Shown here in pieces: positions 21,789 through 36,568 of a DNA stretch of 64,000 nucleotides. Each line of letters opens with the position of its first letter. The stretch's first letter is position 1. The stretch is from the NCBI GenBank assembly GCA_964501135.1, contig CAZCRI010000004.1, forward strand, positions 47,238-111,237. Direction: 5' to 3'. A model generated the notes under the pieces. It had not been told where the DNA came from and ran no database searches. It saw only the letters and a program-made list of their open reading frames with translations. Source of the DNA: an uncultured Candidatus Saccharibacteria bacterium. GTDB taxonomy: Bacteria > Patescibacteriota > CPR2 > UBA1875 > CAIMLA01. Position numbers and translations under genes: made by a program.

Positions 21789-21895
21789 TTTCGCTCCAAA
21801 CTGTCATTCCCGTGGTTCCGAGGAACACAAAGCCTCGCTGCCTCGGTCTAAATGACAAATTAATTAACTACGTTATATTCTACCGTGCTGAGCAC

Positions 21896-21923
21896 AAAAA
21901 AAGAAGCTTTATCGCTTCTTTTT
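21896..21923 (-). terminator. Rho-independent terminator (AGAAGC-loop-GCTTCT plus T-run; U7 on the minus-strand transcript), overlapping the stop codon of the PGPGW gene; probably bidirectional
   Basis: Read directly: aaaaaaagaagctttatcgcttcttttt. Confidence 0.55.
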
Positions 21924-22160
21924 GGCACTAATCTGATTAATTTTCTGTCTGGCAAATTCTCGAATATCCTCCATAAATACAAGGCGAATTCCAATAAGCT
22001 CAATGCCCACAAAAACCAGTATCCACCCTGGAAGAATAGGCAAGAATATCCCGGCAACTCCAACTGCCACCAGCGCAACTCCAAAGATTATTCGTAAAAA
22101 CTTCAATACTTCCTTGTACATGCCAGTATTGTAACATAAAAAGAGACCGACCATTTCCAC
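21909..22160 (-). CDS. Small membrane protein with PGPGW-like motif
   Basis: 83 aa; two TM helices, motif ILPGWILVF. Confidence 0.5.
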   Translation of the reverse strand: MEMVGLFLCYNTGMYKEVLKFLRIIFGVALVAVGVAGIFLPILPGWILVFVGIELIGIRLVFMEDIREFARQKINQISAKKKR

Positions 22161-22181
22161 AAATGATCAGTCTCTTTTTGG

Positions 22182-22253
22182 TAGTCCCAAGGGGAGTCGA
22201 ACCCCTGTTACCAGGATGAAAACCTGGCGTCCTAACCACTAGACGATGGGACC
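22182..22253 (-). tRNA. tRNA-Glu (anticodon UUC)
   Basis: Minus-strand read GGTCCCATCGTCTAGTGGTTAGGACGCCAGGTTTTCATCCTGGTAACAGGGGTTCGACTCCCCTTGGGACTA; anticodon stem CCAGG/CCTGG with loop TTTTCAT; T-arm GGGGTTCGACTCCCC. Confidence 0.85.
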
Positions 22254-22360
22254 TAGGCGCAGTCACCCCCTACACAACAAATCCTTTAGGTAAGAAGTTA
22301 ATTCAGCTCGGATATTATAGCAAATATTACGTTTTTTTTCAATGTTATTACATCAAGGAC

Positions 22361-24820
22361 CTACCTGTGAAATACGGAGAGCTTCGCCGTTTCTCCCAGT
22401 GCAAGTACTGCCAAAGAAATAATAGTAATTCCTATAGTGTAACTAGTAGGTAGACTTACAAACCTAAAGATCCCCATCAGGAAGGGTGTCGACGTTGCGA
22501 AAGCAAGCATTAGAAATGTAAATAATAGAACAGCAATAAGTGCTCTGTTGTCATTTTTTCGTAACTTACCGATAAACGACTCTCTTTTCGAGAGGCCAAC
22601 TAATATCAGTACGACATTTATAGCAACAAGTAAAGTGAAGGTAAAAGTACGAGCGAGCTCTTCGTCGGTATTCTGCAGCAGTATACCATAAGAGCTAACT
22701 AGTATAATTGCGCTTACGAGGCCCCGTCCTATCGGGCCTAGTAGATTCCTAAAAGAGACAATCCTGTCGTGAATTCCTCTTGGCTTCCTAGACATTATAT
22801 CCTTATCTTCTGTGTCCGATTCAAAAACGATAGTACAGGTAGGATCGATGATAAATTCCAAAAACACTATATGAGCCGGAAACAGCACCATGGGCCAACC
22901 CAATAACACTGGGAAAATTGACAGTGCCACTATCGGTATATGCACCGCTATCAGATAACCGACGGCTTTCTGCAAGTTATCATAGATACGTCTTCCCAGC
23001 TTCACACCACCGACAATAGAGTTGAAGTTGTCATCTAAAAGCACGATGCTAGCAGCCTCTCTTGCCACATCCGTGCCCCTTTGACCCATGGCAATACCGA
23101 TGTGGGCTGCTTTGAGAGCCGGGGCATCATTGACGCCGTCACCTGTCATTGCCACCACTTCACCCATAGCTTTCAGCGCCTGGACAATCATGAGCTTTTG
23201 CTCTGGTACGACTCGGCTAAAGACACTTATCTTCGATAAAACACTTTCCCTCTCCGCCGCTGTCATCTTTTCGAATTCATGACCTGTCAGCACCCCGTCG
23301 GTTACAAGACCCACTTGTTTCGCGATCGAGAGTGCGGTGTCGTGGTAATCGCCAGTAATCATAATCACGCGAACGCCGGCTTTGTTTGCCAAAGCGACCG
23401 ATTCCTTCACCCCATTACGAATGGGATCAGCCAGTGCAACGAGGCCAAGGAAGACATAATCTATCTCTGCCCTGTCTTCTGGCAAACTTTCCTTCCTGCA
23501 GCTACCCTTTGCTACAGCAAGAACCCTATAGCCATCCTTGGCCATTTCCGACACCTTTAGGAGTATCCCCTTCTTCTCTTTTGAACTTACGTGGCATAAA
23601 TCGAGCACTGCTTCAACCGAGCCTTTGAGCGCGACCTCGTAGCCAGACCGATATTTATAACCATGAGCGACGCAAAGTGATGTTGAAAGCACTGGATACT
23701 CCTTTTCCAGCTTGTATTCGGAGTAGAGGGCTGCAGTATCCAGGTGTCTCTCGCCCTCTTTCACAAAAGCCAATTCCATCGGGTCAAAAGGCTTTTTCTG
23801 CGAGGCTAGCAAGCCGTACTTTATAACGTCAGCATCGTCGGCAAAGTCATTGAGTAGGATTTCTCCACTAGCGGTATATATTTTCTCTATCGTCATCTTA
23901 TTCTCGGTGAGAGTCCCCGTTTTGTCTACGCAAAGGACGGTTGTAGCCCCCAGTGTCTCGATAGAAGCAGCCCGACGCGACAAGACATTATGTTTGGCAA
24001 GTCTCCAGGCCCCCATCGTAATAAATAACAATAAAACTATCGGGAACTCTTCGGGAAGAATGCTTATCGCTAAGGTAAGGCCAGACAACACGCCCTGAAC
24101 CAAATTGCCCCGAAGAAAGAAGTATAGTACAGCCAAAATTATGGACATTGAGATAGCTATCACAGCAAGGTATCGCACTAACGTGGTGATTTCTTTTTGC
24201 AACATGGTCTTCTCTATTTCTATAGACTGGAGAGATGTCCCAATCTTTCCTATCTCCGTTGCTAGACCAATAGACTGCACGATAGCCCTACCGTGACCGC
24301 TAACCACCATCGATCCAGAAAAAACCTGTTTGTGCTGCTTGGCGTCTTTATCTACTGGGACCGACTCCCCGGTAAGCAAGGATTCGTCAACTTTCAGATT
24401 AGTAGCATCTATTAGCTCGGCGTCGGCAGGGACTCTATCGCCTTCGACTAGCAGTACCAGATCCCCTACAACCACTTCCCTGCCTGCGACACGTATTTCC
24501 TCGCCACTTCTAATTACCAAAGCTCTGGGGCTAGAAAGTTGGGTCAACGCCTGCAGCGACTTTTCACTTTTTCTTTCTTGATACAAGGAGATACCTACTA
24601 CTCCAAAGATAGAAAGTAAGAGTAATACCGCTTCGGCGATGTCACCCAGAAAGATATAGATTCCGCCCGCAGCCAACAGTAACGATATCATCGGCTCTTT
24701 TAGTATCTCTACCAGGAAATGAAAAAGGCTCTTCTCTCTGGCGGTAGGAAGTTCGTTATAACCATTTATATTTAGGCGTTTTGCGGCCTCTGCTGTAGTA
24801 AGACCTAATTGTGCAATCAA
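22361..24820 (-). CDS. Cation-transporting P-type ATPase (type IIA, Ca2+/Mg2+-like)
   Basis: 819 aa; CVDKTGTLTENKM phosphorylation site, TGES, MTGDGVNDAPALKAA, 10 TM segments. Confidence 0.9.
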   Translation of the reverse strand: MIAQLGLTTAEAAKRLNINGYNELPTAREKSLFHFLVEILKEPMISLLLAAGGIYIFLGDIAEAVLLLLSIFGVVGISLYQERKSEKSLQALTQLSSPRALVIRSGEEIRVAGREVVVGDLVLLVEGDRVPADAELIDATNLKVDESLLTGESVPVDKDAKQHKQVFSGSMVVSGHGRAIVQSIGLATEIGKIGTSLQSIEIEKTMLQKEITTLVRYLAVIAISMSIILAVLYFFLRGNLVQGVLSGLTLAISILPEEFPIVLLLFITMGAWRLAKHNVLSRRAASIETLGATTVLCVDKTGTLTENKMTIEKIYTASGEILLNDFADDADVIKYGLLASQKKPFDPMELAFVKEGERHLDTAALYSEYKLEKEYPVLSTSLCVAHGYKYRSGYEVALKGSVEAVLDLCHVSSKEKKGILLKVSEMAKDGYRVLAVAKGSCRKESLPEDRAEIDYVFLGLVALADPIRNGVKESVALANKAGVRVIMITGDYHDTALSIAKQVGLVTDGVLTGHEFEKMTAAERESVLSKISVFSRVVPEQKLMIVQALKAMGEVVAMTGDGVNDAPALKAAHIGIAMGQRGTDVAREAASIVLLDDNFNSIVGGVKLGRRIYDNLQKAVGYLIAVHIPIVALSIFPVLLGWPMVLFPAHIVFLEFIIDPTCTIVFESDTEDKDIMSRKPRGIHDRIVSFRNLLGPIGRGLVSAIILVSSYGILLQNTDEELARTFTFTLLVAINVVLILVGLSKRESFIGKLRKNDNRALIAVLLFTFLMLAFATSTPFLMGIFRFVSLPTSYTIGITIISLAVLALGETAKLSVFHR

Positions 24821-24825
24821 ATCGA

Positions 24826-27075
24826 CTATTCTTTCGTGTTTGTCATCTCTGCGCCATTACTTCTCTCGGCAATCTCTGTTGCTGTCGGCATAGAGGCCAC
24901 CGTGCCTTCTGGTCGTGGTGCAGGAGCGCTTGCAAGTTTCGGTGAAGCCTTCTTCTTTAGTGGGAATTTGAAGCCAAACACCGATCCCTTGCCCTCTGTA
25001 GAGTCAAAGATGATCTCACCACCATGGTCGAGTACAACGCGTTTGGCAAGATAAATTCCGAGACCTGTACCATCTGGGCGTGCAGTGCGGGCATTATCGG
25101 CACGGAAGAACTTCTCAAAGAGATGATCTCGTTGTGCCTTCGGTACCCCGATACCTGTGTCGTGTACTTCGTAGATAAAGTTATCCTTGTCGTGCTTCAG
25201 AATTACAGTCACACCACCAGTATTTGTGTAATAGATAGCGTTGTCCATAAAGTTCATCACAACCTGGCGAATCTTGGTCTCGTCGGCATAAATGTGTGGC
25301 ACCTTGCCCTTTACCTCAAGTTTCAGGTACAGACCCTTGGCCTTGGCGCTGTTACTAAGCTGTTTCACTTCCTCATTCACGACACGTTCAATGTCTACCT
25401 CTTTAGGCTCTAGGAAGAAACGACCGGTATCCATACGAGAAACGTTCAGGAGGTCGTTGATCAGCCCTACCATACGGTTTGCGCCACTGTAGGCTTCGTT
25501 GATGAAGTCGTACTGACTTACCTTGATATCTCCGGCATCTCCCTCGAGAAGCATCGACAGATAGCCCTTGATGGCCGTCAGAGGGGTACGGAGCTGATGA
25601 GATGCCATGGAGATAAACTCGTCCTTGGCATGATCTAGCTCCATGAGCTGCTCATTCTTCTGTTTCAATCTGTAGGTAGCACGTTTTACTTCCTGACGCA
25701 GGGTGGTGTTGAAGCGACTAATCTCCTCGTAAGATTTCGCATTCTCTACGGCAATTGCCAGCTCTGGAGCCAAGATTTCTAGAACACTGATGTCCTGCTG
25801 GCTGTACATGTCTCCTGAGCTTTTTTCACCAAGCAGCAAAACACCAACAATTTCTTTCTCTGTCTTCAATGGGACAACCAAAGTTGCTTCATACTCAGAA
25901 AGTAGATGCTTCATACGAGAGCCGTCCTCTAAGTCATCAAAGTGAATTATTCCGTCATGTGTCATCTTAATAACATCTTTGGGGTCTACATCTGGAGTCT
26001 GTTTATACCCAATTGCCTGTGCTGTATATAATCGGCTATCGTCTTTAACTAATGCAAAAAGAACCCTACTCGCTTTGATATTTTTTGACAGCAAGTCTCC
26101 AACTTTATAGAGAAGCTCTATAAGCACTATGGTTGAACCAAGGGTATTAGATAATTCACTTAGCAGATCATCCGCATTATAGGCGTTTCGAAAAAATACC
26201 TTGTCTGTTACTTTGGTAATCCAGGTCTTAAGGGGTTGGAAAAGGAATACCATAACGACAGCTATGACTGTTCTGAGCGCGCCTTCACCCCAACCAAAAT
26301 TTGCCAGCTGTTCAGGAAAGAATAGCTTCTCAAGGCCCAAAACAGAACCAGCGTAAAAGGCCGCCAATGATAATAGTAGTAATAAGTAGGATACCGACCT
26401 AGCTACAACCAATCTAATATCCATCAGCTTATGCTTGGCAATTGCATACGAGGAAGCCGCTACTAAAAATAGCGAACTCTGGGCATCTATAGGCGCAACC
26501 ATCTTTATTCCAAACATTGGCAAAATAGAACTAAACATTACAGAAACCCCACCAAAGATAAATGAACCAATCAATATATAGCCATATTGCCTTTTTAGAC
26601 TACCTTTCGACTTCACGAATGTGTAGACAACGATTCCTATATAATAAGCAAACAAGATATTTATAAGATAACCGTAATAGTCAAATAGAGGCCCGGGGAC
26701 AAATGTGAACGCCCCGTTACTGGTTACTGACAAAGACTTAATTACGAGGCTCCCCATCAACGGAATTAATAAAGTAAATAAGTAAACCAACGTAAAGATT
26801 ATTACATTAAGTTTGGTAGCCTTGTTTCTCAAAAAGTTAAACCAAATAATAATGGCTACTATTGTTGAAGCGCCCAAGGCATATTGTGATTCAAACAAAA
26901 ACATCTTCGGAAAGAAGTAAAAAACGAAATTGGACAAACACCATAAGCCTGTATTTAAGCTGAAAAGTCCAAATGAAATGTACAAGGCCTTCTTAGGATT
27001 TCTTAGGAAAACCAGGAGACCTAGGATTATATTTGCTAATGCTGCAAAGAGAGTAAGATAATTTAAATAGTCCAT
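24826..27075 (-). CDS. Sensor histidine kinase (multi-TM N-terminal sensor, GAF-like, HisKA, HATPase_c)
   Basis: 749 aa; about 10 TM helices N-terminally; H-box SHQLRTPLTAIKGY; G-boxes GTGLGIYLAK. Confidence 0.85.
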   Translation of the reverse strand: MDYLNYLTLFAALANIILGLLVFLRNPKKALYISFGLFSLNTGLWCLSNFVFYFFPKMFLFESQYALGASTIVAIIIWFNFLRNKATKLNVIIFTLVYLFTLLIPLMGSLVIKSLSVTSNGAFTFVPGPLFDYYGYLINILFAYYIGIVVYTFVKSKGSLKRQYGYILIGSFIFGGVSVMFSSILPMFGIKMVAPIDAQSSLFLVAASSYAIAKHKLMDIRLVVARSVSYLLLLLSLAAFYAGSVLGLEKLFFPEQLANFGWGEGALRTVIAVVMVFLFQPLKTWITKVTDKVFFRNAYNADDLLSELSNTLGSTIVLIELLYKVGDLLSKNIKASRVLFALVKDDSRLYTAQAIGYKQTPDVDPKDVIKMTHDGIIHFDDLEDGSRMKHLLSEYEATLVVPLKTEKEIVGVLLLGEKSSGDMYSQQDISVLEILAPELAIAVENAKSYEEISRFNTTLRQEVKRATYRLKQKNEQLMELDHAKDEFISMASHQLRTPLTAIKGYLSMLLEGDAGDIKVSQYDFINEAYSGANRMVGLINDLLNVSRMDTGRFFLEPKEVDIERVVNEEVKQLSNSAKAKGLYLKLEVKGKVPHIYADETKIRQVVMNFMDNAIYYTNTGGVTVILKHDKDNFIYEVHDTGIGVPKAQRDHLFEKFFRADNARTARPDGTGLGIYLAKRVVLDHGGEIIFDSTEGKGSVFGFKFPLKKKASPKLASAPAPRPEGTVASMPTATEIAERSNGAEMTNTKE

Positions 27076-27076
27076 T

Positions 27077-28342
27077 TTAGATTAAACCAAACTCCTTTCC
27101 TGCTTTTTCAAAAGCAGCAGCCGCTGCGTCTAAGTCCTTCTTTTCATGTGTTGCCATAATCGTAACTCTAGCCCTAGCTGAATTTTTTGGAACAGCCGGC
27201 CATCGGAAACAGGGAATGTAAACTCCAAGCTCAAGTAATCTATCAGAAAACTTTACTGAGAGATCTTCATCTCCAATCACAACTGGCAAAACAGAGATTG
27301 TTCCGTCACCAAGTACCGTATAACCCATGGCCGTAAGTTTGTCTTTTAAATAGACCGAGTTGTCCATCAATTTCTTTCTCAGTTTTTTGCCCTCAGCATT
27401 TTGGCAAATCTTCAAAGACTCAATAGCGCCACCGGCTAAGACACCCGGGACAGCACTGGAAAAAATATATGGCCTTGAAGCAACTTTTAGATAATCTATC
27501 AGTTCCTTCTTCCCTGCTAGATAACCACCCATACAACCGATGGTTTTATCAAATGAACCCATTAAAATATCAACCTTGTCCGTAATTCCTAGATATTGTG
27601 GAACACCCCCTCCATCATTGCCCATTACTCCAACACCATGAGCATCATCAACCATAAAGATACAATTATACTTTTCGGCTAAAGCTGCGATTTCCTTTAG
27701 CTTTCCAAGGTGTCCGTCAAGACTAAAAACCCCCTCAGTGACAATTAATTTATGTTTATTTTTTGAGTACTTTTTTAACTTATTTTCTAAATCAACAATG
27801 TCATTGTGCTTAAAAACAACTTTCTTTGACGAACTGAGCCTGCAGCCATCAATTATTGTGGCATGATTGTATTCGTCACTGAAAATCACCCCGCTACCCT
27901 TAGCGTAAGGTACCCCGTTCATAAAAAATGGGTCCATAACCGCACTGAAAACCGCCAGGTTGGCCATATAACCCGTAGGGAAAGTAATAGCTGCTTCCTT
28001 GCCCACTGTCTTTGCAACAACTTCGTCAAGCTCCTCGAGAACCTTAATATTTCCGCACAAGAATCTCGAACCTCCTGGTCCGCCACCATGTATATCTAGC
28101 TGTTTTCTGGCTCCCTCAACAACCTTCCTGTTGGTTGCCAATCCCATATAATTATTTGAGCTAAACATTAGGACCTCTTTGCCATCAATAACTACCCTGG
28201 CATCAGTACCATTGTTTTCAAATTTTTGGAACTTAGGATATATATCTTCTTTTTTTAGAAAATTTAGAAGCTTCTCAATATTTGCAAATTTATAATCTTC
28301 TCTCGAAATTGCAAGCTTAATCAGGTCTGCGGCTTTTATCAT
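27077..28342 (-). CDS. PLP-dependent alpha-oxoamine synthase (Kbl/BioF/serine palmitoyltransferase family)
   Basis: 421 aa; class II aminotransferase fold; PLP-lysine region SFDKTIGCMGGYLAG; DDAHGVG motif. Confidence 0.8.
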   Translation of the reverse strand: MIKAADLIKLAISREDYKFANIEKLLNFLKKEDIYPKFQKFENNGTDARVVIDGKEVLMFSSNNYMGLATNRKVVEGARKQLDIHGGGPGGSRFLCGNIKVLEELDEVVAKTVGKEAAITFPTGYMANLAVFSAVMDPFFMNGVPYAKGSGVIFSDEYNHATIIDGCRLSSSKKVVFKHNDIVDLENKLKKYSKNKHKLIVTEGVFSLDGHLGKLKEIAALAEKYNCIFMVDDAHGVGVMGNDGGGVPQYLGITDKVDILMGSFDKTIGCMGGYLAGKKELIDYLKVASRPYIFSSAVPGVLAGGAIESLKICQNAEGKKLRKKLMDNSVYLKDKLTAMGYTVLGDGTISVLPVVIGDEDLSVKFSDRLLELGVYIPCFRWPAVPKNSARARVTIMATHEKKDLDAAAAAFEKAGKEFGLI

Positions 28343-28383
28343 AATCCCTCCTTCTCTAATATAATTCTACACTATCTTCTTGC

Positions 28384-30129
28384 TTAGCTATACATTTCTT
28401 CAATTTTGACAGCTTTGTTTGCTAAAATTACCTGCCTTTTTAGCGACAGTTTTGGCGTGAGTTCTCCACCTTCTATGCTGAAAGGCTCTGCAAGTAAGGC
28501 GAATTTTCGAACGTGCTCGATAGTAGATAGATGTGCTGTCTTGTTTATCGCCTCGCCCGAGATTAGCTCAAATACCTCTGGCATCTTAGCTAGTTTTGCC
28601 TTGCTCTTCACATTGAAATGAAGTGCCAACTGCGCATAGTCAGGAACGATTAGGGCAGCGATATGCTTATGTCCATCCCCTACCACCATTGCTTGCTCGA
28701 TATAGAGACTAGACTCGAGCGCATTCTCGATGTGGACAGGAGCGACTTTTTTGCCGGTTGTGAGCACTATCAGGTCCTTTTTGCGTCCGGAGATGGTAAG
28801 AAAACCATCTTTATCGATTGTGCCGAGATCGCCAGTACAAAAGTAACCATCTTTGGTGAATGCATCTTTGTTATCGGCCGGTCGCAAATAACCCTGAGTA
28901 ATTGTCGGTCCCTTTACTAAGATTTCCCCGTCCTTCGCGAGCTTAAGCTTGAGATTGTAAATTGGGTGACCGACGGTACCAAATCGGTAATTTGTAATCT
29001 CATTTACCGCGATAATCGGTGAGGTTTCCGTGAGGCCATAACCCTCAAGGACCAGCATATCGACCTTGGCGAAAAATTGACCGATCTTCTTCGGTAATGA
29101 TGCTCCACCAGAGATGAAGAAACGGATATTGCCACCAAAATTACCCTTTACCTTGGAGAAAACTAGTTTATCAAAAAGTGGATAGAACGGGCTGCTTTTC
29201 TTCGTAGCAAAGGCGAGGCGGAATATCAGCTTGGTGAGTAGGCTCTTATTTGCCTTGGCCTGAACCTTTTCGTAAATCTTCTCATATAGCCGCGGGACTG
29301 CTAGTACAATGGTTGGCTTTATTGCCTGTATTTCTTCCGACAGAGTATTTAGGCTCAGGCAGTATGCAATGCTAGCACCGGCATAGATAGGGATATAGTA
29401 TCCCGCGGTACGCTCAAAAACGTGTGAAAGCGGCAAGATAGAAAAAAATCGATCGGTTGGCAATATCCAAATAGAGTGTGTAGTACCGATAATGTTCTCA
29501 ATAAAGTTACCGTGAGTAAGTTTCACTCCCTTGAGGTGACCTGTAGTACCAGAAGTATAGATGATACTGGCAAGAACATCGGGCCGAATCTCGAGCGCTC
29601 CTGCTGCCAGCGCTGCTTCCTGTGCCTCGGTAATTTCCATATCGTTGATCAGTTTCTTGAAATAGAGAAGTTTGGCAAAGTTCGTATCTTCGATATGGGT
29701 AAAAGATACCAGGTGCTCGATTTTCGCCACATCCCGAGCAATTTCAAGGAGTTTATCTTCAATCGCCTTCTCCGAAAAGAAGATTGCCTTGGGCTTGATT
29801 TCTTCAATTATCCCAGCGAGTTGCCCAGCCGAAAGTACCTCGTGAACTGGGACCGTGACTCCGCCGATTAGTTGCAAGGCAAGATCAGTGATTACCCACT
29901 CTGGACGATTTTCGGAAATCAAAAGAACTCGGTCCCCTTGCTTGAAACCGAGATTCAGCATCGCCTGGGCAAGCGCCATAACCTCACTTTTTAGTTCAAA
30001 GTAGGTCAGGCTTTCGTAATGATGGCCTTTTTTGTATCGTAGGACTTCGTTTTGGGCACGTAGCTCGGCCGAAGTGAGAAACATATCGGCTAGATTTAGC
30101 GGTATCCACTGCTCTTTTGGCTTTGTCAC
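28384..30129 (-). CDS. Long-chain fatty-acid--CoA ligase (AMP-forming)
   Basis: 581 aa; AMP-binding signature IIYTSGTTGHLKGV; GYGLTE; C-terminal ligase domain. Confidence 0.85.
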   Translation of the reverse strand: MTKPKEQWIPLNLADMFLTSAELRAQNEVLRYKKGHHYESLTYFELKSEVMALAQAMLNLGFKQGDRVLLISENRPEWVITDLALQLIGGVTVPVHEVLSAGQLAGIIEEIKPKAIFFSEKAIEDKLLEIARDVAKIEHLVSFTHIEDTNFAKLLYFKKLINDMEITEAQEAALAAGALEIRPDVLASIIYTSGTTGHLKGVKLTHGNFIENIIGTTHSIWILPTDRFFSILPLSHVFERTAGYYIPIYAGASIAYCLSLNTLSEEIQAIKPTIVLAVPRLYEKIYEKVQAKANKSLLTKLIFRLAFATKKSSPFYPLFDKLVFSKVKGNFGGNIRFFISGGASLPKKIGQFFAKVDMLVLEGYGLTETSPIIAVNEITNYRFGTVGHPIYNLKLKLAKDGEILVKGPTITQGYLRPADNKDAFTKDGYFCTGDLGTIDKDGFLTISGRKKDLIVLTTGKKVAPVHIENALESSLYIEQAMVVGDGHKHIAALIVPDYAQLALHFNVKSKAKLAKMPEVFELISGEAINKTAHLSTIEHVRKFALLAEPFSIEGGELTPKLSLKRQVILANKAVKIEEMYS

Positions 30130-30233
30130 GGGTATCCCCTCCAGCTATTCAGTATTTGTATATTACCAGATACTTGCACTATTGTGGAGACTTTCTCCTG
30201 ATCCCGCACCCTAAAGTATTCTCTATATCATCC

Positions 30234-30271
30234 GGTGGTAAAGTTGTTGCTGGAGCAACAACTTTACCACC
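30234..30271. repeat. Perfect hairpin (17-bp stem, 4-nt loop). Its left arm plus loop (30234..30256) is the exact inverted repeat of 30871..30893.
   Basis: ggtggtaaagttgttgc-tgga-gcaacaactttaccacc, read directly. Confidence 0.9.
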
Positions 30272-30285
30272 TTATTAAAAAACCA

Positions 30286-30864
30286 TCAGTCTTCGAGGTT
30301 AAGTTTAAACTTCCTCATGTATTCTGCCTGTCGAGGCAAGTGGTCGGTAACCAGGAAAACTACGTATGACGAAACACCGATACTGTGTGCAAACACAGCC
30401 AATTCCTCCTTGCATTCATAGGGAAAGGCAAACATGCTTTCCTGGACTTTCTGAAATCTATTCTGAAGCAGTTTTTTACGGAAGTACTCTCGCTCCTTCT
30501 TTGCAGTGTCTGGGATATCGTAAGCAACTACGCGCCACAAGCCATCCCAACGTTTTGCAGTCTCAATAGTAAACTCTTCAGACTGCAACAGATGCATCAG
30601 CTTCTTTCCTTTCGAGGTCAGCTTTACCAGGTCGCCACTTAAAGATATCAAATCCTTGTCCTCCAGGGCTTTCATACAACGTTTCGCGTTATATTTTGAA
30701 TATTTATTCCCAGGAATTAGTGGGGCCACTGCCATTGGCAAACCGGGGACAACCATAGAAGCTAAGACAAAAGTACCCACTCCAATATATCCAAGAATCT
30801 CCTTCTCTTTCTTTCCGAGACGTATACTCTTAAGTTTTCTTCGTTCCTCTTGTGAGATTTTCAT
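30286..30864 (-). CDS. Hypothetical protein with N-terminal hydrophobic/wHTH-like region and C-terminal Cas2-like (ferredoxin-fold nuclease-like) motif
   Basis: 192 aa; WRVVAYDIPDTAKKEREYFRKKLLQNRFQKVQESMFAFP matches the Cas2 pattern (V-x-YDI ... R-x-x-L ... Q-x-S-V/M-F); later SSYVVFLV strand; N-terminal GDLVKLTSKGKKL resembles a winged-helix wing; GGAG ribosome-binding site lies inside the flanking repeat. Confidence 0.5.
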   Translation of the reverse strand: MKISQEERRKLKSIRLGKKEKEILGYIGVGTFVLASMVVPGLPMAVAPLIPGNKYSKYNAKRCMKALEDKDLISLSGDLVKLTSKGKKLMHLLQSEEFTIETAKRWDGLWRVVAYDIPDTAKKEREYFRKKLLQNRFQKVQESMFAFPYECKEELAVFAHSIGVSSYVVFLVTDHLPRQAEYMRKFKLNLED

Positions 30865-30870
30865 TTCTTT

Positions 30871-30893
30871 GCTCCAGCAACAACTTTACCACC
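30871..30893. repeat. 23-bp inverted-repeat partner (exact reverse complement of 30234..30256), immediately 5' of the Cas2-like gene; contains its SD
   Basis: gctccagcaacaactttaccacc. Confidence 0.9.
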
Positions 30894-30942
30894 ATAGTTT
30901 TTGTGCTACTAGTAGACAAGTTATAAGTTGCTACTGAATTCC

Positions 30943-31896
30943 CTACCGGGAGAAATTCCACTTGTATCCGTTAGCCGCCCCAAGATAGGCGTCGAAACTT
31001 CCCTGTAAACTCTGTGCGGTAGTAGTTGGAAACATTCGGATCCTGGGAATTTCATAATTATTTCCCGACTTGGCGAAAGGCTGGGTCGTAACTGCGGCCT
31101 TATATCCAGCGGCCTTTGCTTCTCGTTCCGTAAGTTCTCCAAACCGTCCCGAAGGGTAACACAGAAATCCCACTGGCTTTCCGGTTATTGCCTCCAAATC
31201 GGCCTTACTCTTGGTGAGCTGATTATCCATATCTCCCTTATTTGCAAACTGCATATCGATATGAGTTACCGTATGCGATTGGACATCCATACCAGCATCT
31301 GACATTTCACGTAGCTGCGCGCTGTTCATGTACGATCCAGCTCCAACGTAACCAGAAATAATAAAGAAAACCCCCTTTTGACCACGTTCTCTCAGTCTAG
31401 GAAATACCTCCGCGTAATTATCTGCATAGCCATCGTCAAAAGTGAGAACCACAGATTTTTCTACCACCCTACCAGCAAATAAATCGGTAAGAGTAATAGT
31501 ATGATAGCCGTTGCTCTTGAGCCAATCTAGCTGGGCAGCAAAAGCCTCGGGTGTTACCGAAAGTCCTGCCTCTATCTTGTCCTTACCAGTATACGTCCGG
31601 ATATGATGATACATGAGGACCGGAACTAGTTTGTCACCAGAGACATAATGCCTTTCCTCTCCTCTCGGCATCGGCGGAATAACCTGGGGGACATACTCCC
31701 CTTCATGAAATACTTGCTCTGCCTCTTGAGCCTGCACCGGATCCTTGACTACGGCTTGCATGGAGACATGATTCTGTGAAGTACGCGCCCACCACAACAT
31801 TCCAAATATCATAATTAATACCCAGATAACGGTGAAAGAAAAATAATTTCGAAGAAAACGATGCGTATTTGGTTTTGTTATACTATCTTGATGCAA
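30943..31896 (-). CDS. Polysaccharide deacetylase (NodB homology domain), membrane-anchored
   Basis: 317 aa; N-terminal TM; motifs VLMYHHI and LTFDDGYADN. Confidence 0.8.
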   Translation of the reverse strand: MHQDSITKPNTHRFLRNYFSFTVIWVLIMIFGMLWWARTSQNHVSMQAVVKDPVQAQEAEQVFHEGEYVPQVIPPMPRGEERHYVSGDKLVPVLMYHHIRTYTGKDKIEAGLSVTPEAFAAQLDWLKSNGYHTITLTDLFAGRVVEKSVVLTFDDGYADNYAEVFPRLRERGQKGVFFIISGYVGAGSYMNSAQLREMSDAGMDVQSHTVTHIDMQFANKGDMDNQLTKSKADLEAITGKPVGFLCYPSGRFGELTEREAKAAGYKAAVTTQPFAKSGNNYEIPRIRMFPTTTAQSLQGSFDAYLGAANGYKWNFSR

Positions 31897-31903
31897 TTTA
31901 TTC

Positions 31904-33592
31904 CTAGTTACCTACCGCATATACTTTATTTGGTGCACTACCAGTAATATTGGCCCCAGTTTGATTTTGGTTATTTAACCGAAAACTAAATTTGTATTTT
32001 CCAGTCTTCACGTCATACTCATAGTTAATACTACCAACATTATAGTCCGAGGTAAGATAAGGATCATCACCTGCAGTAAATATCGCCATAAGCTCATTGA
32101 TGTCTGTCGCCGCCGGATATGCACCTTCGTCTGATTTGTACTGCTCCAGAGCCGTCTGTAATACGGAAATATCTGACCTTAGCGCTGTATCTTTAGTTTT
32201 ATTCTCGGCTCCCGTTCCGAAATTTTCGTCATATGCAGCTGCTGCGTCTGTGCTGTTAATAATTCTTGCTCCAATCGGCAACTTTATAGCATCGTTGAAG
32301 CTGTAGTCGAAGCTTTGTTGCCAGGAAAAAGTATATTTCATATCTACTCCCTGGACATTTTTGGCTGCATCCCCTGACGAAGTCACTGTCGCTACTGCTC
32401 TAGCATCAATTTTTGTAATGCGACCAGTCGTTGCATCAATCCAGATCTCGGCTTTTGTAGCACTTTCATCAACTTTGAGCTCTACCCCAGAGCTATTTCC
32501 AGCCAAGTTTGCCTTTAGGGCATCTATCATCTCTGAGCTTACAAGGAAGGCAAAGCGATATTGTCTCTTGCCATTCACTGTTTCGTTACTTTCTCTAGTA
32601 AACACCTTGGCGGTACTAGCATTAAGCCAGCTCTTTTGCGGAACCAGCTGAGATACATCGAAACCGACTGTCTTCGCGTCCGTTACTGCCTTCCAGGCAT
32701 TTTTGTATTCCGTATATTTCTTGGATGAAAACTTGGAATTTTCCGGATCAGCAATGTATAGGGCGTCCTTCTTTTTTATATATACCAGACTACCCGGCAA
32801 GTTCTCGTCTGTAATGGTAGCCCGAACATTCTGGTCTCCATCAACCTCAAGCTTGCCCTTTATGGCAAAGCCAGTTGTACTAAGACTAAGATCACTAGAC
32901 ATCTTCGGTAACGACGAAATTTGCGACAAGGAACCCTGCAGAATCCTTAAGTTATTACTCGCCTGATATGCCTGATAACCAAAGTATCCGGCCACCACGA
33001 TCACAATCAAGAAAACGGCTAGCCCGCTATATAGTAGTATGTTTTTTAGAGTCTTATTACCAGAAATACTAGAGGTTTTTACGGACGCGTCTCCAGTTGG
33101 CCGCTCAATAAGGGTACCGTCCACTGCGACGCTCATTCCCCTACTATCGACTTGCTTTCCTTCGGAAAGTGGATCTGGAACCATTGCCGGATTTACATAG
33201 GTGTCGCGAATTGGTTCACGTGGAACTCCGATTGGAACTGGTGGTACGGCAACAGGCGGTGTTTCGGTTGGGACTTGGGGCATCGGCGCAAAAGTCTGGC
33301 CCAGGCTTGATGCTGGAACCTCTGCTGCCGGCTGCTCCGGTGCTTCGTTTTCGTTCACTTCGACGCTATTTTCATCAATGGGCACTTCGGTTGGAACTTC
33401 TTCTTCCGACACTGTAGCTCCAATAACCGGAGTTTCCGTAGACTTAGGTTCGGCAATTAAATCGTCAGGCCGAAAAATTGGTGGCATATTTGTATCTTCC
33501 GCGCCTAGAGACCCTAAATCAGCTGCCGGTACCACACTATCGGCAGAATCTCCCTCTAGGGAGTTTATCGCATTTGCAATATCGTCGTCCAA
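31904..33592 (-). CDS. Hypothetical large surface protein (disordered Pro/Glu-rich N-terminus, one TM, extracellular domain)
   Basis: 562 aa; TM LLYSGLAVFLIVIVVAGYFGY; no recognisable catalytic motif. Confidence 0.5.
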   Translation of the reverse strand: MDDDIANAINSLEGDSADSVVPAADLGSLGAEDTNMPPIFRPDDLIAEPKSTETPVIGATVSEEEVPTEVPIDENSVEVNENEAPEQPAAEVPASSLGQTFAPMPQVPTETPPVAVPPVPIGVPREPIRDTYVNPAMVPDPLSEGKQVDSRGMSVAVDGTLIERPTGDASVKTSSISGNKTLKNILLYSGLAVFLIVIVVAGYFGYQAYQASNNLRILQGSLSQISSLPKMSSDLSLSTTGFAIKGKLEVDGDQNVRATITDENLPGSLVYIKKKDALYIADPENSKFSSKKYTEYKNAWKAVTDAKTVGFDVSQLVPQKSWLNASTAKVFTRESNETVNGKRQYRFAFLVSSEMIDALKANLAGNSSGVELKVDESATKAEIWIDATTGRITKIDARAVATVTSSGDAAKNVQGVDMKYTFSWQQSFDYSFNDAIKLPIGARIINSTDAAAAYDENFGTGAENKTKDTALRSDISVLQTALEQYKSDEGAYPAATDINELMAIFTAGDDPYLTSDYNVGSINYEYDVKTGKYKFSFRLNNQNQTGANITGSAPNKVYAVGN

Positions 33593-36178: not shown

Positions 36179-36568
36179 ATGGCAATAAAAATCCTACTCG
36201 CAGAAGACGACATCCAACTTGTCGATATGTACAGTCGCAAATTTGCGCTTGATGGTTTTGATGTTCAGCTTGCCGAAGACGGGCAGAAAGCCATCGACAT
36301 CCTAAAGACTGGATTTATGCCAGACGTAGCCATACTTGATGTGATGATGCCTCAGGTAGATGGACTACAGGTTCTCGCCTACATCCGCGAGCAAAAGGAA
36401 CTCGACGACCTCATAGTAATCATGCTCACTAACCTCTCTGACGAAAAGACAGCGGAGCGAATTTACGCCCTCGGAGCTACTGAATATTTGGTAAAAGCTG
36501 AGTTTACGCCACTAGAGGTCTCGGCCAAAGTAAAAGAACTCATCGAATACTACAAGAAGAAGAAATAA
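36179..36568 (+). CDS. Stand-alone response-regulator receiver domain (CheY-like)
   Basis: 129 aa; LLAEDD, phospho-acceptor D in AILDVMMP, conserved T/K positions; no output domain. Confidence 0.85.
   Translation: MAIKILLAEDDIQLVDMYSRKFALDGFDVQLAEDGQKAIDILKTGFMPDVAILDVMMPQVDGLQVLAYIREQKELDDLIVIMLTNLSDEKTAERIYALGATEYLVKAEFTPLEVSAKVKELIEYYKKKK

Follow-up and report, generated by a model that had tools for sequence, protein, structure and literature searches.

The 64,000-nucleotide segment of contig CAZCRI010000004.1 from an uncultured Candidatus Saccharibacteria bacterium that is analyzed here (hereinafter, the window) contains on its minus strand a locus of four co-directional genes. These encode an AMP-forming acyl-CoA ligase (28384-30129, 581 amino acids, GTG start), a pyridoxal phosphate-dependent alpha-oxoamine synthase (AOS; 27077-28342, 421 amino acids), a histidine kinase (HK; 24826-27075, 749 amino acids) with multiple transmembrane (TM) helices and a GAF domain, and a P-type ATPase (22361-24820, 819 amino acids, TTG start), with spacings of 41 nucleotides between ligase and AOS, 1 nucleotide between AOS and HK, and 5 nucleotides between HK and ATPase. 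This layout, first described in a sequence-only reading made without database searches, is borne out by the open reading frames (ORFs) and by their Pfam and NCBIfam families. At the AOS/HK junction, a single base separates the stop codon of the AOS from the start codon of the HK (TAA-a-ATG); the AOS gene is preceded by a strong Shine-Dalgarno sequence, GAAGGAGGG, and the GTG start of the ligase by the Shine-Dalgarno sequence GGAGGGG. An independent assembly (L001 from Logan, ERR3839025; loci are denoted by L-numbers throughout) contains the 3' end of the ligase gene, the AOS gene and the 5' end of the HK gene at 100% identity and thus independently reproduces the junctions, so that the arrangement is not an assembly chimera. 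A scan of positions 21800-31000 for promoters and terminators yielded counts as in shuffled sequence and is uninformative on co-transcription. The genomes closest to the window are those of L020 (labelled "Patescibacteria group") and L018 (labelled "Saccharibacteria"), and the homologues of the AOS and the HK come overwhelmingly from Patescibacteria.

The synthase and the kinase of the locus

The AOS (PF00155) has intact catalytic residues, with H160, D232, H235, K266, R380 and R392 invariant, and scores below the NCBIfam cut-offs for Kbl (NF005394, 388 bits against a cut-off of 460; TIGR01822, 321 against 493), BioF (TIGR00858, 363 against 426) and serine palmitoyltransferase (SPT; NF047600, 337 against 640; NF047599, 297 against 500; NF047603, 243 against 670), as well as below that of the ALAS hidden Markov model (HMM). 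A neighbor-joining tree was built for 154 AOS sequences, with four Kbl proteins, the Thermus enzyme ThAOS, a Sphingobacterium SPT (S. multivorum, 8guh), BioF and ALAS as references. The AOS of the window falls in a clade of 55 sequences from Patescibacteria, Myxococcota, Actinomycetota and Bacillota that is monophyletic in 99 of 100 bootstrap replicates and excludes all of these references. Members of this clade share an insertion of about 11 amino acids before the motif SDExNH, the motifs GxGPGGSR and RWPAVP, and an aspartate immediately before the Schiff-base lysine. The AOS of the window belongs to this distinct, "sensor-linked" clade and is a putative maker of a long-chain alpha-amino ketone.

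An ordinary enzyme of threonine degradation (Kbl) or of biotin synthesis (BioF) that stands beside a kinase by chance would account for the top matches of the AOS, which are to Kbl both among the HMMs (the 388 bits given above) and, by score, in the PDB (3tqx, 283 bits), and for the BioF label that its relatives carry in JGI annotation. Such an identity is very improbable in view of the scores below the Kbl and BioF cut-offs, the separation of the clade from both families, its unique motifs in the active-site region, and the genomic context. A tblastn search with BioA, BioB and BioD detects no homologue in the window, and BioA/B/D neighbors occur only in the other AOS clade; no tdh gene is present among the ten flanking genes covered by the Pfam scan, the search for tdh being limited to these genes and not extended to the entire window. 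Thus, the Kbl/BioF housekeeping identity was rejected on HMM cut-offs, gene context and the tree, and the sequence-only reading, which had pointed to the lack of bioA/D/B nearby and discounted biotin and threonine metabolism, was correct on both counts. Its further suggestion of a sphingoid-base (SPT-like) enzyme fails by the same three measures, on which the SPT identity was rejected as well: the SPT models are missed by a wide range (243-337 bits against 500-670), the SPT reference, with which the AOS shares 39-40% sequence similarity (252 bits), lies outside the clade, and no genes for acyl carrier protein (ACP), 3-ketosphinganine reductase or ceramide synthase were found among the five genes to either side of the four-gene cluster that were scanned with Pfam or in the related loci.

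Two other members of the AOS family deserve mention. In L176, a near relative of the window, the same position is occupied by a third, very divergent AOS (L176:3272-4501, 409 amino acids), which is 37-40% identical to all others, has SLSKG in place of the aspartate-lysine motif of the clade, retains the RWPAV motif as well as the loop insertion, and has a further variant of the kinase sensor domain as its partner. In one Anaeromyxobacteraceae locus (L009:14-1456), a short-chain fatty-acyl-CoA regulator (ScfR-type HTH and peptidase M78) is encoded ahead of the AOS gene.

In the HK, the C-terminal remainder (24826-26433, minus strand like all parts of the gene) consists of two long helices followed by GAF (about 25741-26124), HisKA (about 25423-25629) and HATPase_c (about 24955-25284) domains; all three are matched by Pfam, in accord with the original assignment of a GAF sensor kinase. 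Over this remainder, identity is 67-95% across 60 Patescibacteria relatives. The N-terminal region, residues 1-214 (26434-27075), is assigned as a seven-helix (7TM) sensor domain of the HisKA_7TM type. This homology was shown via orthologues and the custom HMM because the N-terminus of the window protein gives no direct match to PF16927 (HisKA_7TM), even at E<=10. The orthologous kinases of L020, L018 and L011 reach 38, 43.6 and 50 bits, respectively, with that profile (cut-off 28.6), the window sequence aligns with those of L020 and L018 over its full length, and it scores 250 bits with the HMM built from the Pfam-positive relatives. In the AlphaFold2 model of residues 1-300 (pLDDT 91.7), seven TM helices are accompanied by an outer beta-hairpin and the two long helices, rather than there being the approximately 10 TM helices that were counted initially. 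Residues 1 to ~200 are hypervariable, with 22-48% identity to the window across 60 HK relatives against 57-93% in the kinase core, and an alignment of 74 HK sequences yields hardly any consensus up to residue ~205. Earlier work has pointed to a GPCR-like (G-protein-coupled receptor-like) fold in prokaryotic 7TM kinases and cyclases (PMC13581589), and no ligand for HisKA_7TM is assigned in the literature searched (PMC5847659, PMC6944256). The 7TM domain of the window HK is proposed here to be a putative receptor for the AOS product.

Association of the synthase with membrane sensors

At least 160 AOS loci were fetched from species-representative genomes and metagenomes, most of the locus sequences being metagenome-assembled genomes (MAGs), and the neighboring genes were mapped; among the matches listed, the metagenomes contributed few additional close loci. 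In all 16 Patescibacteria loci with downstream DNA, which come from Paceibacteria, Colwell-, Yanofsky-, Berkel- and Kerfeldbacteria and Saccharibacteria, the AOS gene is directly followed on the same strand by an HK homologue, with gaps of -3 to 54 nucleotides; the HK start is often overlapped by the last upstream gene, regardless of the family of that gene. Within the sensor-linked clade, a HisKA_7TM protein is encoded within 1 kb of the AOS in 34 of the 47 evaluable loci, and eight more have another multi-TM HK or a methyl-accepting chemotaxis protein (MCP), that is, 42 of 47 in total, compared with one of 56 evaluable loci outside the clade (nominal Fisher p=2e-15). The sole case among these 56 is that of Candidatus Scalindua (L047, L109, L110), where an AOS of the BioF-like clade has cutA upstream and a convergent HisKA_7TM hybrid kinase 300 nucleotides downstream.

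The output modules attached to these sensors vary among phyla. In Patescibacteria, the sensor is followed by GAF-HisKA-HATPase; the partners in Actinomycetota are HisKA_7TM-PAS-GAF-GGDEF-HD-GYP proteins and HisKA_7TM hybrid HKs, the one in Bacillota is a 5-TM MCP, and those in Myxococcota are convergent multi-TM HKs. Searches with hhalign and hmmsearch detect no homology to HisKA_7TM for the TM regions of the Myxococcota HK or the Bacillota MCP, nor for the 7-8-TM proteins encoded upstream of the AOS in L036, L095 and L100. Hence the cross-phylum link is to multi-TM sensors generally, and the HisKA_7TM domain proper is the partner only in Patescibacteria and Actinomycetota. The conserved unit is the AOS together with the N-terminal 7TM domain of the HK, not the ligase together with the AOS. 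A constant enzyme, a constant type of membrane sensor and interchangeable outputs form the pattern that is expected of a ligand-maker and its receptor. The functional tie between kinase and enzyme that was suspected from the window alone is thus likely, to judge by the invariant adjacency in Patescibacteria.

Additional sensor genes are encountered around some of these loci. Two additional short 7TM kinases are encoded upstream of one AOS (L005/L087:2428-7779), a second 7TM kinase is located on the opposite strand in L011 (7660-13374), and stand-alone 7TM-only paralogues are present in L025 (8904-9557) and L027 (8236-9748), in both cases upstream of the AOS. In the Actinomycetota loci L030-L032 and L057, an opposite-strand small-domain methyltransferase (MTS family) is inserted between the AOS gene and the HisKA_7TM-GGDEF/HD-GYP gene, and one Actinomycetota MAG has two such AOS loci (L031, L040).

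The ligase matches PF00501 (240.8 bits) and PF23562, both above the cut-offs, and its best NCBIfam match is FadD11, with 266 bits against a cut-off of 950; no equivalog cut-off is reached. It is 93% identical overall to the L020 orthologue. We propose that it is a long-chain, FadD11/ACSL-like enzyme and a putative supplier of acyl-CoA from scavenged fatty acids. A ligase of this kind adjoins the AOS only in the window and in L002/3, L018, L020, L094, L168 and L176. Elsewhere, the gene upstream of the AOS encodes a PlsC-like acyltransferase (L005-7, L024), and in L026, a different AMP-binding ligase and an acyltransferase precede the AOS. Thus, most Patescibacteria loci have an acyl-activating enzyme and/or a PlsC-like acyltransferase encoded ahead of the AOS, the enzymes being mutually non-orthologous. 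The idea that the AOS is fed with acyl-CoA by the adjoining ligase is plausible in the light of this recurrent, if heterogeneous, gene order.

The ATPase combines E1-E2_ATPase with Cation_ATPase_N and Cation_ATPase_C domains. It had been taken for a calcium-transporting type IIA pump, an assignment that is too specific: the equivalog cut-offs are missed both by the best model, TIGR01522 (PMR1-type calcium ATPase, 476 bits against 798), and by TIGR01116 (378 against 703), only the generic P-type model TIGR01494 is passed, and the protein can be described as type II-like only. An ATPase gene directly follows the HK in four of about 15 near relatives (the window, L018, L168 and L171); it was accordingly rejected as a part of the conserved unit and is accessory to the locus. 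With the ligase beside the AOS in some lineages only, the four genes do not constitute one functional unit as they had been presented.

No response regulator (RR) gene adjoins the cluster, as had been stated. However, a single-domain RR of 129 amino acids (36179-36568, plus strand; PF00072, 73.8 bits) is encoded 6 kb upstream of it. This protein is 98% identical to the RR of L020, and RRs of the same family adjoin the ligase/AOS/HK cluster in L002, L003 and L176 and are encoded in its vicinity in L005, L007, L018, L020 and L026; the RR of the window is syntenic with the cluster-adjoining RRs of L002 and L176. Judging from this synteny, it is the likely phosphoacceptor of the HK.

A divergent cassette and its counterparts in related genomes

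Comparison with L020 by blastn delineates a divergent cassette (26488-28426, minus strand) that includes the 3'-terminal ~14 codons of the ligase gene, the 41-nucleotide spacer, the AOS gene and the 5'-terminal ~196 codons of the HK gene. The flanking DNA is 78-81% identical, and similarity is lost between about 28427 and 26487, a 530-nucleotide core of the AOS gene within this stretch being 67% identical. The proteins change accordingly: identity is 92-100% along most of the ligase and 64% in its last ~25 residues, the AOS is 47-48% identical, and the HK is 28-57% identical over residues 1 to ~200 and 88-100% identical beyond residue 225, with 67% in the last short window. The GC content of third codon positions is 0.48 in the flanks, 0.358 in the AOS and 0.395 in the 7TM region, and this dip coincides with the cassette. 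The AOS alleles of the window and L020 are anciently diverged by the tree, where their most recent common ancestor takes in other phyla in 85 of 100 bootstrap replicates. When the distances between kinase cores are controlled for, AOS and 7TM distances are correlated (partial Mantel r=0.65, p=1e-4); rank versions of this test with problematic and close pairs dropped give r=0.46-0.55 (p<=4e-4).

Ten further near relatives were examined, which are 70-86% identical to the window over the HK remainder and 78-81% in GAPDH; over that remainder, near relatives share 70-94% identity. In L169-L177, other gene sets fill the slot that separates the HK from the ligase or acyltransferase: a FeeM-type N-acyl amino acid synthase (NAS) and ThiF in L169; two methyltransferases and a LuxI/FeeM-like synthase, above the Pfam cut-offs of PF21926 and PF00765, in L172; an acyltransferase, two unknown genes and ThiF in L171 and L173; an acyltransferase and a HAD-IB protein in L174 and L175; two small unknown genes in L170; a PrmA-like methyltransferase in L177; and the divergent AOS described above in L176. 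The 7TM domains are 41% identical (33-60) between cassettes of the same type and 27% identical (23-34) between different types, and identity in the HK remainder is no higher in same-type pairs than in different-type pairs, so that the 7TM domain tracks cassette type, not kinase phylogeny (partial Mantel r=0.84, p=1e-4). For example, L172 and L177 share 93% of the kinase remainder and only 25% of the 7TM domain.

The main competing explanation, close to that of the sequence-only reading, is a membrane-lipid remodelling island, in which the ligase, the AOS, PlsC-like acyltransferases and HAD phosphatases would make lineage-specific aminolipids or sphingoid-like lipids from host fatty acids and the 7TM domain would be a homeostatic product sensor that co-evolves with the lipid. 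It would agree with the ligase and/or PlsC-like acyltransferase upstream of most Patescibacteria AOS genes, with the acyltransferase-HAD cassettes of L174 and L175, and with the fact that the sensor is an integral membrane domain; moreover, to our knowledge, Patescibacteria of this kind lack fatty-acid synthesis. Nevertheless, this explanation appears doubtful given that the same AOS clade pairs with MCP and GGDEF/HD-GYP (cyclic di-GMP) outputs in free-living phyla, that the same slot is taken by LuxI/FeeM-type synthases and methyltransferases, that reductase, ceramide synthase and ACP genes were not found in the flanks, that the SPT HMM scores are far under the cut-offs, and that near relatives do not usually swap enzymes of bulk lipid synthesis for other families. 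Should it be true, the locus would still mark a lineage-specific membrane chemistry based on host fatty acids.

The tracking of enzyme type by the 7TM domain is also compatible with sensing and utilization of host lipids, where the 7TM domain would sense a host-derived substrate lipid, the variable enzymes would process it, and the polymorphism would reflect host range. Cultured Saccharibacteria live as epibionts of other bacteria, and Saccharibacteria is also the label of the related locus L018; the presence of a conserved ligase implies that exogenous fatty acids are taken up. This scenario is unlikely, considering that the AOS and the LuxI/FeeM enzymes catalyze condensations and act in biosynthesis, not in catabolism, and that the same pairing is found in Actinomycetota and Myxococcota genomes with contigs of 1-3.5 Mb, which are not epibionts.

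In relatives of the window, ORFs that may belong to mobile elements are numerous around the slot. Small ORFs resembling GIY-YIG endonucleases are scattered among the conserved gap, pgk, tpi and fba genes in L002 and L169-L177 (e.g., L169:10018-10341, L170:7303-7602 and L173:9669-9962), and 23S_rRNA_IVP ORFs and toxin-antitoxin pairs surround the slot, namely PemK in L002 and HTH_17 with Fic in L168, L170, L171 and L174. These GIY-YIG, IVP and toxin-antitoxin ORFs may drive recombination at the locus. Taken further, they suggest a recombination hot spot without functional coupling, that is, a variable island promoted by mobile elements, with the sensor diversifying for another reason (e.g., as a target of phage or host contact) and the linked segments simply co-inherited. 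We regard this explanation as quite improbable: it does not readily accommodate the recurrent in-frame swap of the sensor domain alone of a conserved kinase, together with the enzyme genes, or the adjacency of AOS and sensor in four phyla with different architectures. In addition, 7TM similarity follows cassette type across deep divergence of the kinase core, as illustrated by L084, which is 44% identical to the window in the 7TM domain and 54% in the core, and L169, with 31% and 86%, respectively.

The more distant surroundings of the locus contain genes of other functions. Upstream of the ligase lie a PaaX_M/Cas2-like ORF, a polysaccharide deacetylase, a 562-amino acid ORF and an ABC-2 transporter. 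The first of these (30286-30864, minus strand, 192 amino acids), which stands between the deacetylase and the ligase, is a lineage-specific insertion, as L020 lacks it and has the deacetylase immediately next to the ligase. It is followed, 14 nucleotides past its stop codon, by a 17-bp perfect inverted repeat with a 4-nucleotide loop (30234-30271, minus strand, read from the sequence), a hairpin that is likely to be a transcript boundary ahead of the ligase. The 562-amino acid ORF (31904-33592, minus strand), adjoining the ABC-2 transporter, has no Pfam match, is 60% identical to its counterpart in L020 and is also present in L018. Downstream, a tRNA gene (22182-22253, minus strand) directly follows the ATPase, with a promoter-like site (22314-22342; 11 of 12 matches, extended -10 TG) ahead of it in the 107-nucleotide gap, and then comes a gap-pgk-tpi-fba-ppdk block.

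A proposed signalling system and its known counterparts

The adjacency of the AOS and the 7TM domain, its recurrence in other phyla with different outputs, and the joint replacement of enzyme and sensor point to the sensing of a signal or product rather than to bulk lipid synthesis. On balance, and by a modest degree, we consider it probable that the locus is one allele of a polymorphic system composed of an acyl-metabolite synthase and a cognate 7TM receptor kinase, that is, a quorum-sensing or kin-recognition "dialect" predicted from the sequence comparisons. A weaker statement is considered likely, namely that the 7TM domain recognizes an acyl-derived molecule made or processed by the enzymes encoded next to it. 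A broader generalization is put forward tentatively and falls short of being probable: Patescibacteria and some Actinomycetota, Myxococcota and Bacillota might share a previously unrecognized mode of small-molecule communication, in which a HisKA_7TM receptor domain would detect acyl-derived metabolites produced by the gene or genes directly ahead of it. In Patescibacteria, maker and receptor domain would be exchanged jointly, as cassettes of several enzyme families (AOS, LuxI/FeeM-like and others), giving rise to chemical "dialects" among close relatives.

Under the proposed signalling mechanism, the ligase would activate a scavenged fatty acid to acyl-CoA, and the AOS would condense this acyl-CoA with an amino acid to yield a lipophilic alpha-amino ketone, a chemistry like that of CqsA and SPT carried out by a separate clade. 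In the translationally coupled kinase, the HisKA_7TM domain, with its seven helices and GPCR fold, would bind the amino ketone within the membrane, and the conserved GAF/HisKA/HATPase core would then phosphorylate the conserved single-domain RR.

Several observations weigh against this proposal. The evidence is all computational, with the product, the ligand and co-transcription inferred from it. The AOS is far from CqsA and LqsA (NF005526, 177 bits against a cut-off of 428; 79 bits with CqsA structures), and its tree is of the neighbor-joining type only, with one SPT reference and none for CqsA. The locus retrieval used motif patterns that favor the sensor-linked clade; the loci are not phylogenetically independent, so that the Fisher and Mantel p-values given above overstate significance; and the co-variation may partly reflect linkage rather than function because physically adjacent segments recombine together. 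On the sensor side, the lack of a direct PF16927 match in the window and of HisKA_7TM homology in the Myxococcota and Bacillota partners has to be taken into account, and the RR has no output domain. Finally, the cassettes with an acyltransferase and a HAD phosphatase and those with PlsC-like proteins resemble lipid metabolism rather than signal synthesis.

Ultra-small bacteria have tiny genomes and few regulators, and we know of no self-signalling system described in them. A search of the literature on Patescibacteria (CPR) with SPT, sphingolipid or autoinducer synthase, and on NAS with histidine kinases, found nothing relevant. If the proposal is correct, the locus would be the first candidate quorum-sensing or kin-recognition system of ultra-small bacteria, and cell-cell or host-linked signalling in these organisms would become directly testable. 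HisKA_7TM, which is widespread, shares the GPCR fold and has been an orphan sensor domain, would gain its first ligand class, and a new functional AOS subfamily would be defined that is currently mislabelled BioF or Kbl by automatic pipelines. Furthermore, the system would be a small-molecule counterpart of peptide pherotypes, and would indicate that the evolution of "specificity groups" can swap whole enzyme families, not just peptide sequences.

Among characterized systems, alpha-hydroxyketone quorum sensing by CqsA/CqsS of Vibrio and LqsA/LqsS of Legionella combines an AOS-family enzyme, which turns acyl-CoA into a lipophilic signal derived from an amino ketone, with a multi-TM receptor kinase encoded beside it. 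The window has the same architecture, an AOS-family, pyridoxal phosphate-dependent enzyme encoded next to a membrane HK with a multi-TM N-terminus, separated by a single nucleotide, and this arrangement extends to all of the evaluable Patescibacteria loci and to most members of the clade; a shared function would be a prediction from the gene arrangement. In contrast to CqsA and LqsA, the AOS of the window lies outside their family, in its own clade nearer Kbl and SPT. The sensor also differs, CqsS being of a 6-TM type and the window HK having a seven-helix HisKA_7TM domain followed by GAF, and so does the locus, which includes a linked fatty-acid ligase and is polymorphic, with entirely different enzyme families substituting for the AOS.

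Bacterial SPT clusters (Caulobacter spt with ACP and acyl-ACP synthetase; the SPTs of Sphingobacterium and Bacteroides) likewise place an AOS beside an adenylate-forming acyl-activating enzyme. The AOS of the window differs from these in missing all three SPT cut-offs, in its position outside the SPT reference in the tree, and in being linked to sensors rather than to lipid genes, with no ACP, reductase or ceramide synthase nearby. Long-chain N-acyl amino acid synthases of the FeeM/NAS type are known to be linked to PEP-CTERM/exosortase together with an acyl-CoA ligase and PrsK/PrsR. The cassettes of L169 and L172 carry FeeM/TIGR03694-like synthases beside an acyl-CoA ligase and an HK, but these are devoid of the exosortase/PEP-CTERM context and score 37.7 against an NCBIfam cut-off of 112, and the window itself has an AOS, not a NAS.

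The agrBDCA locus of staphylococci and comQXPA of Bacillus are pherotype loci in which hypervariable signal genes and the sensor domain of the receptor co-vary as maker and sensor. The window shares with them a hypervariable block that comprises the maker genes and the sensor domain only, between conserved flanks, and a co-variation of maker and sensor that is independent of the kinase core (r=0.65, 0.46-0.55 and 0.84 in the tests above, with linkage as a confounding factor). Unlike the agr and com loci, which produce peptide signals and vary within one gene family, the locus described here presumably produces acyl-derived small molecules, and the enzyme family itself changes among AOS, FeeM/LuxI-like, ThiF, and acyltransferase with HAD. 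Lastly, the N-terminus of the window kinase is a probable member of HisKA_7TM (PF16927) by homology through its orthologues, and the genomic link of this domain to the sensor-linked AOS clade and to other enzymes of acyl chemistry suggests the class of its ligand.

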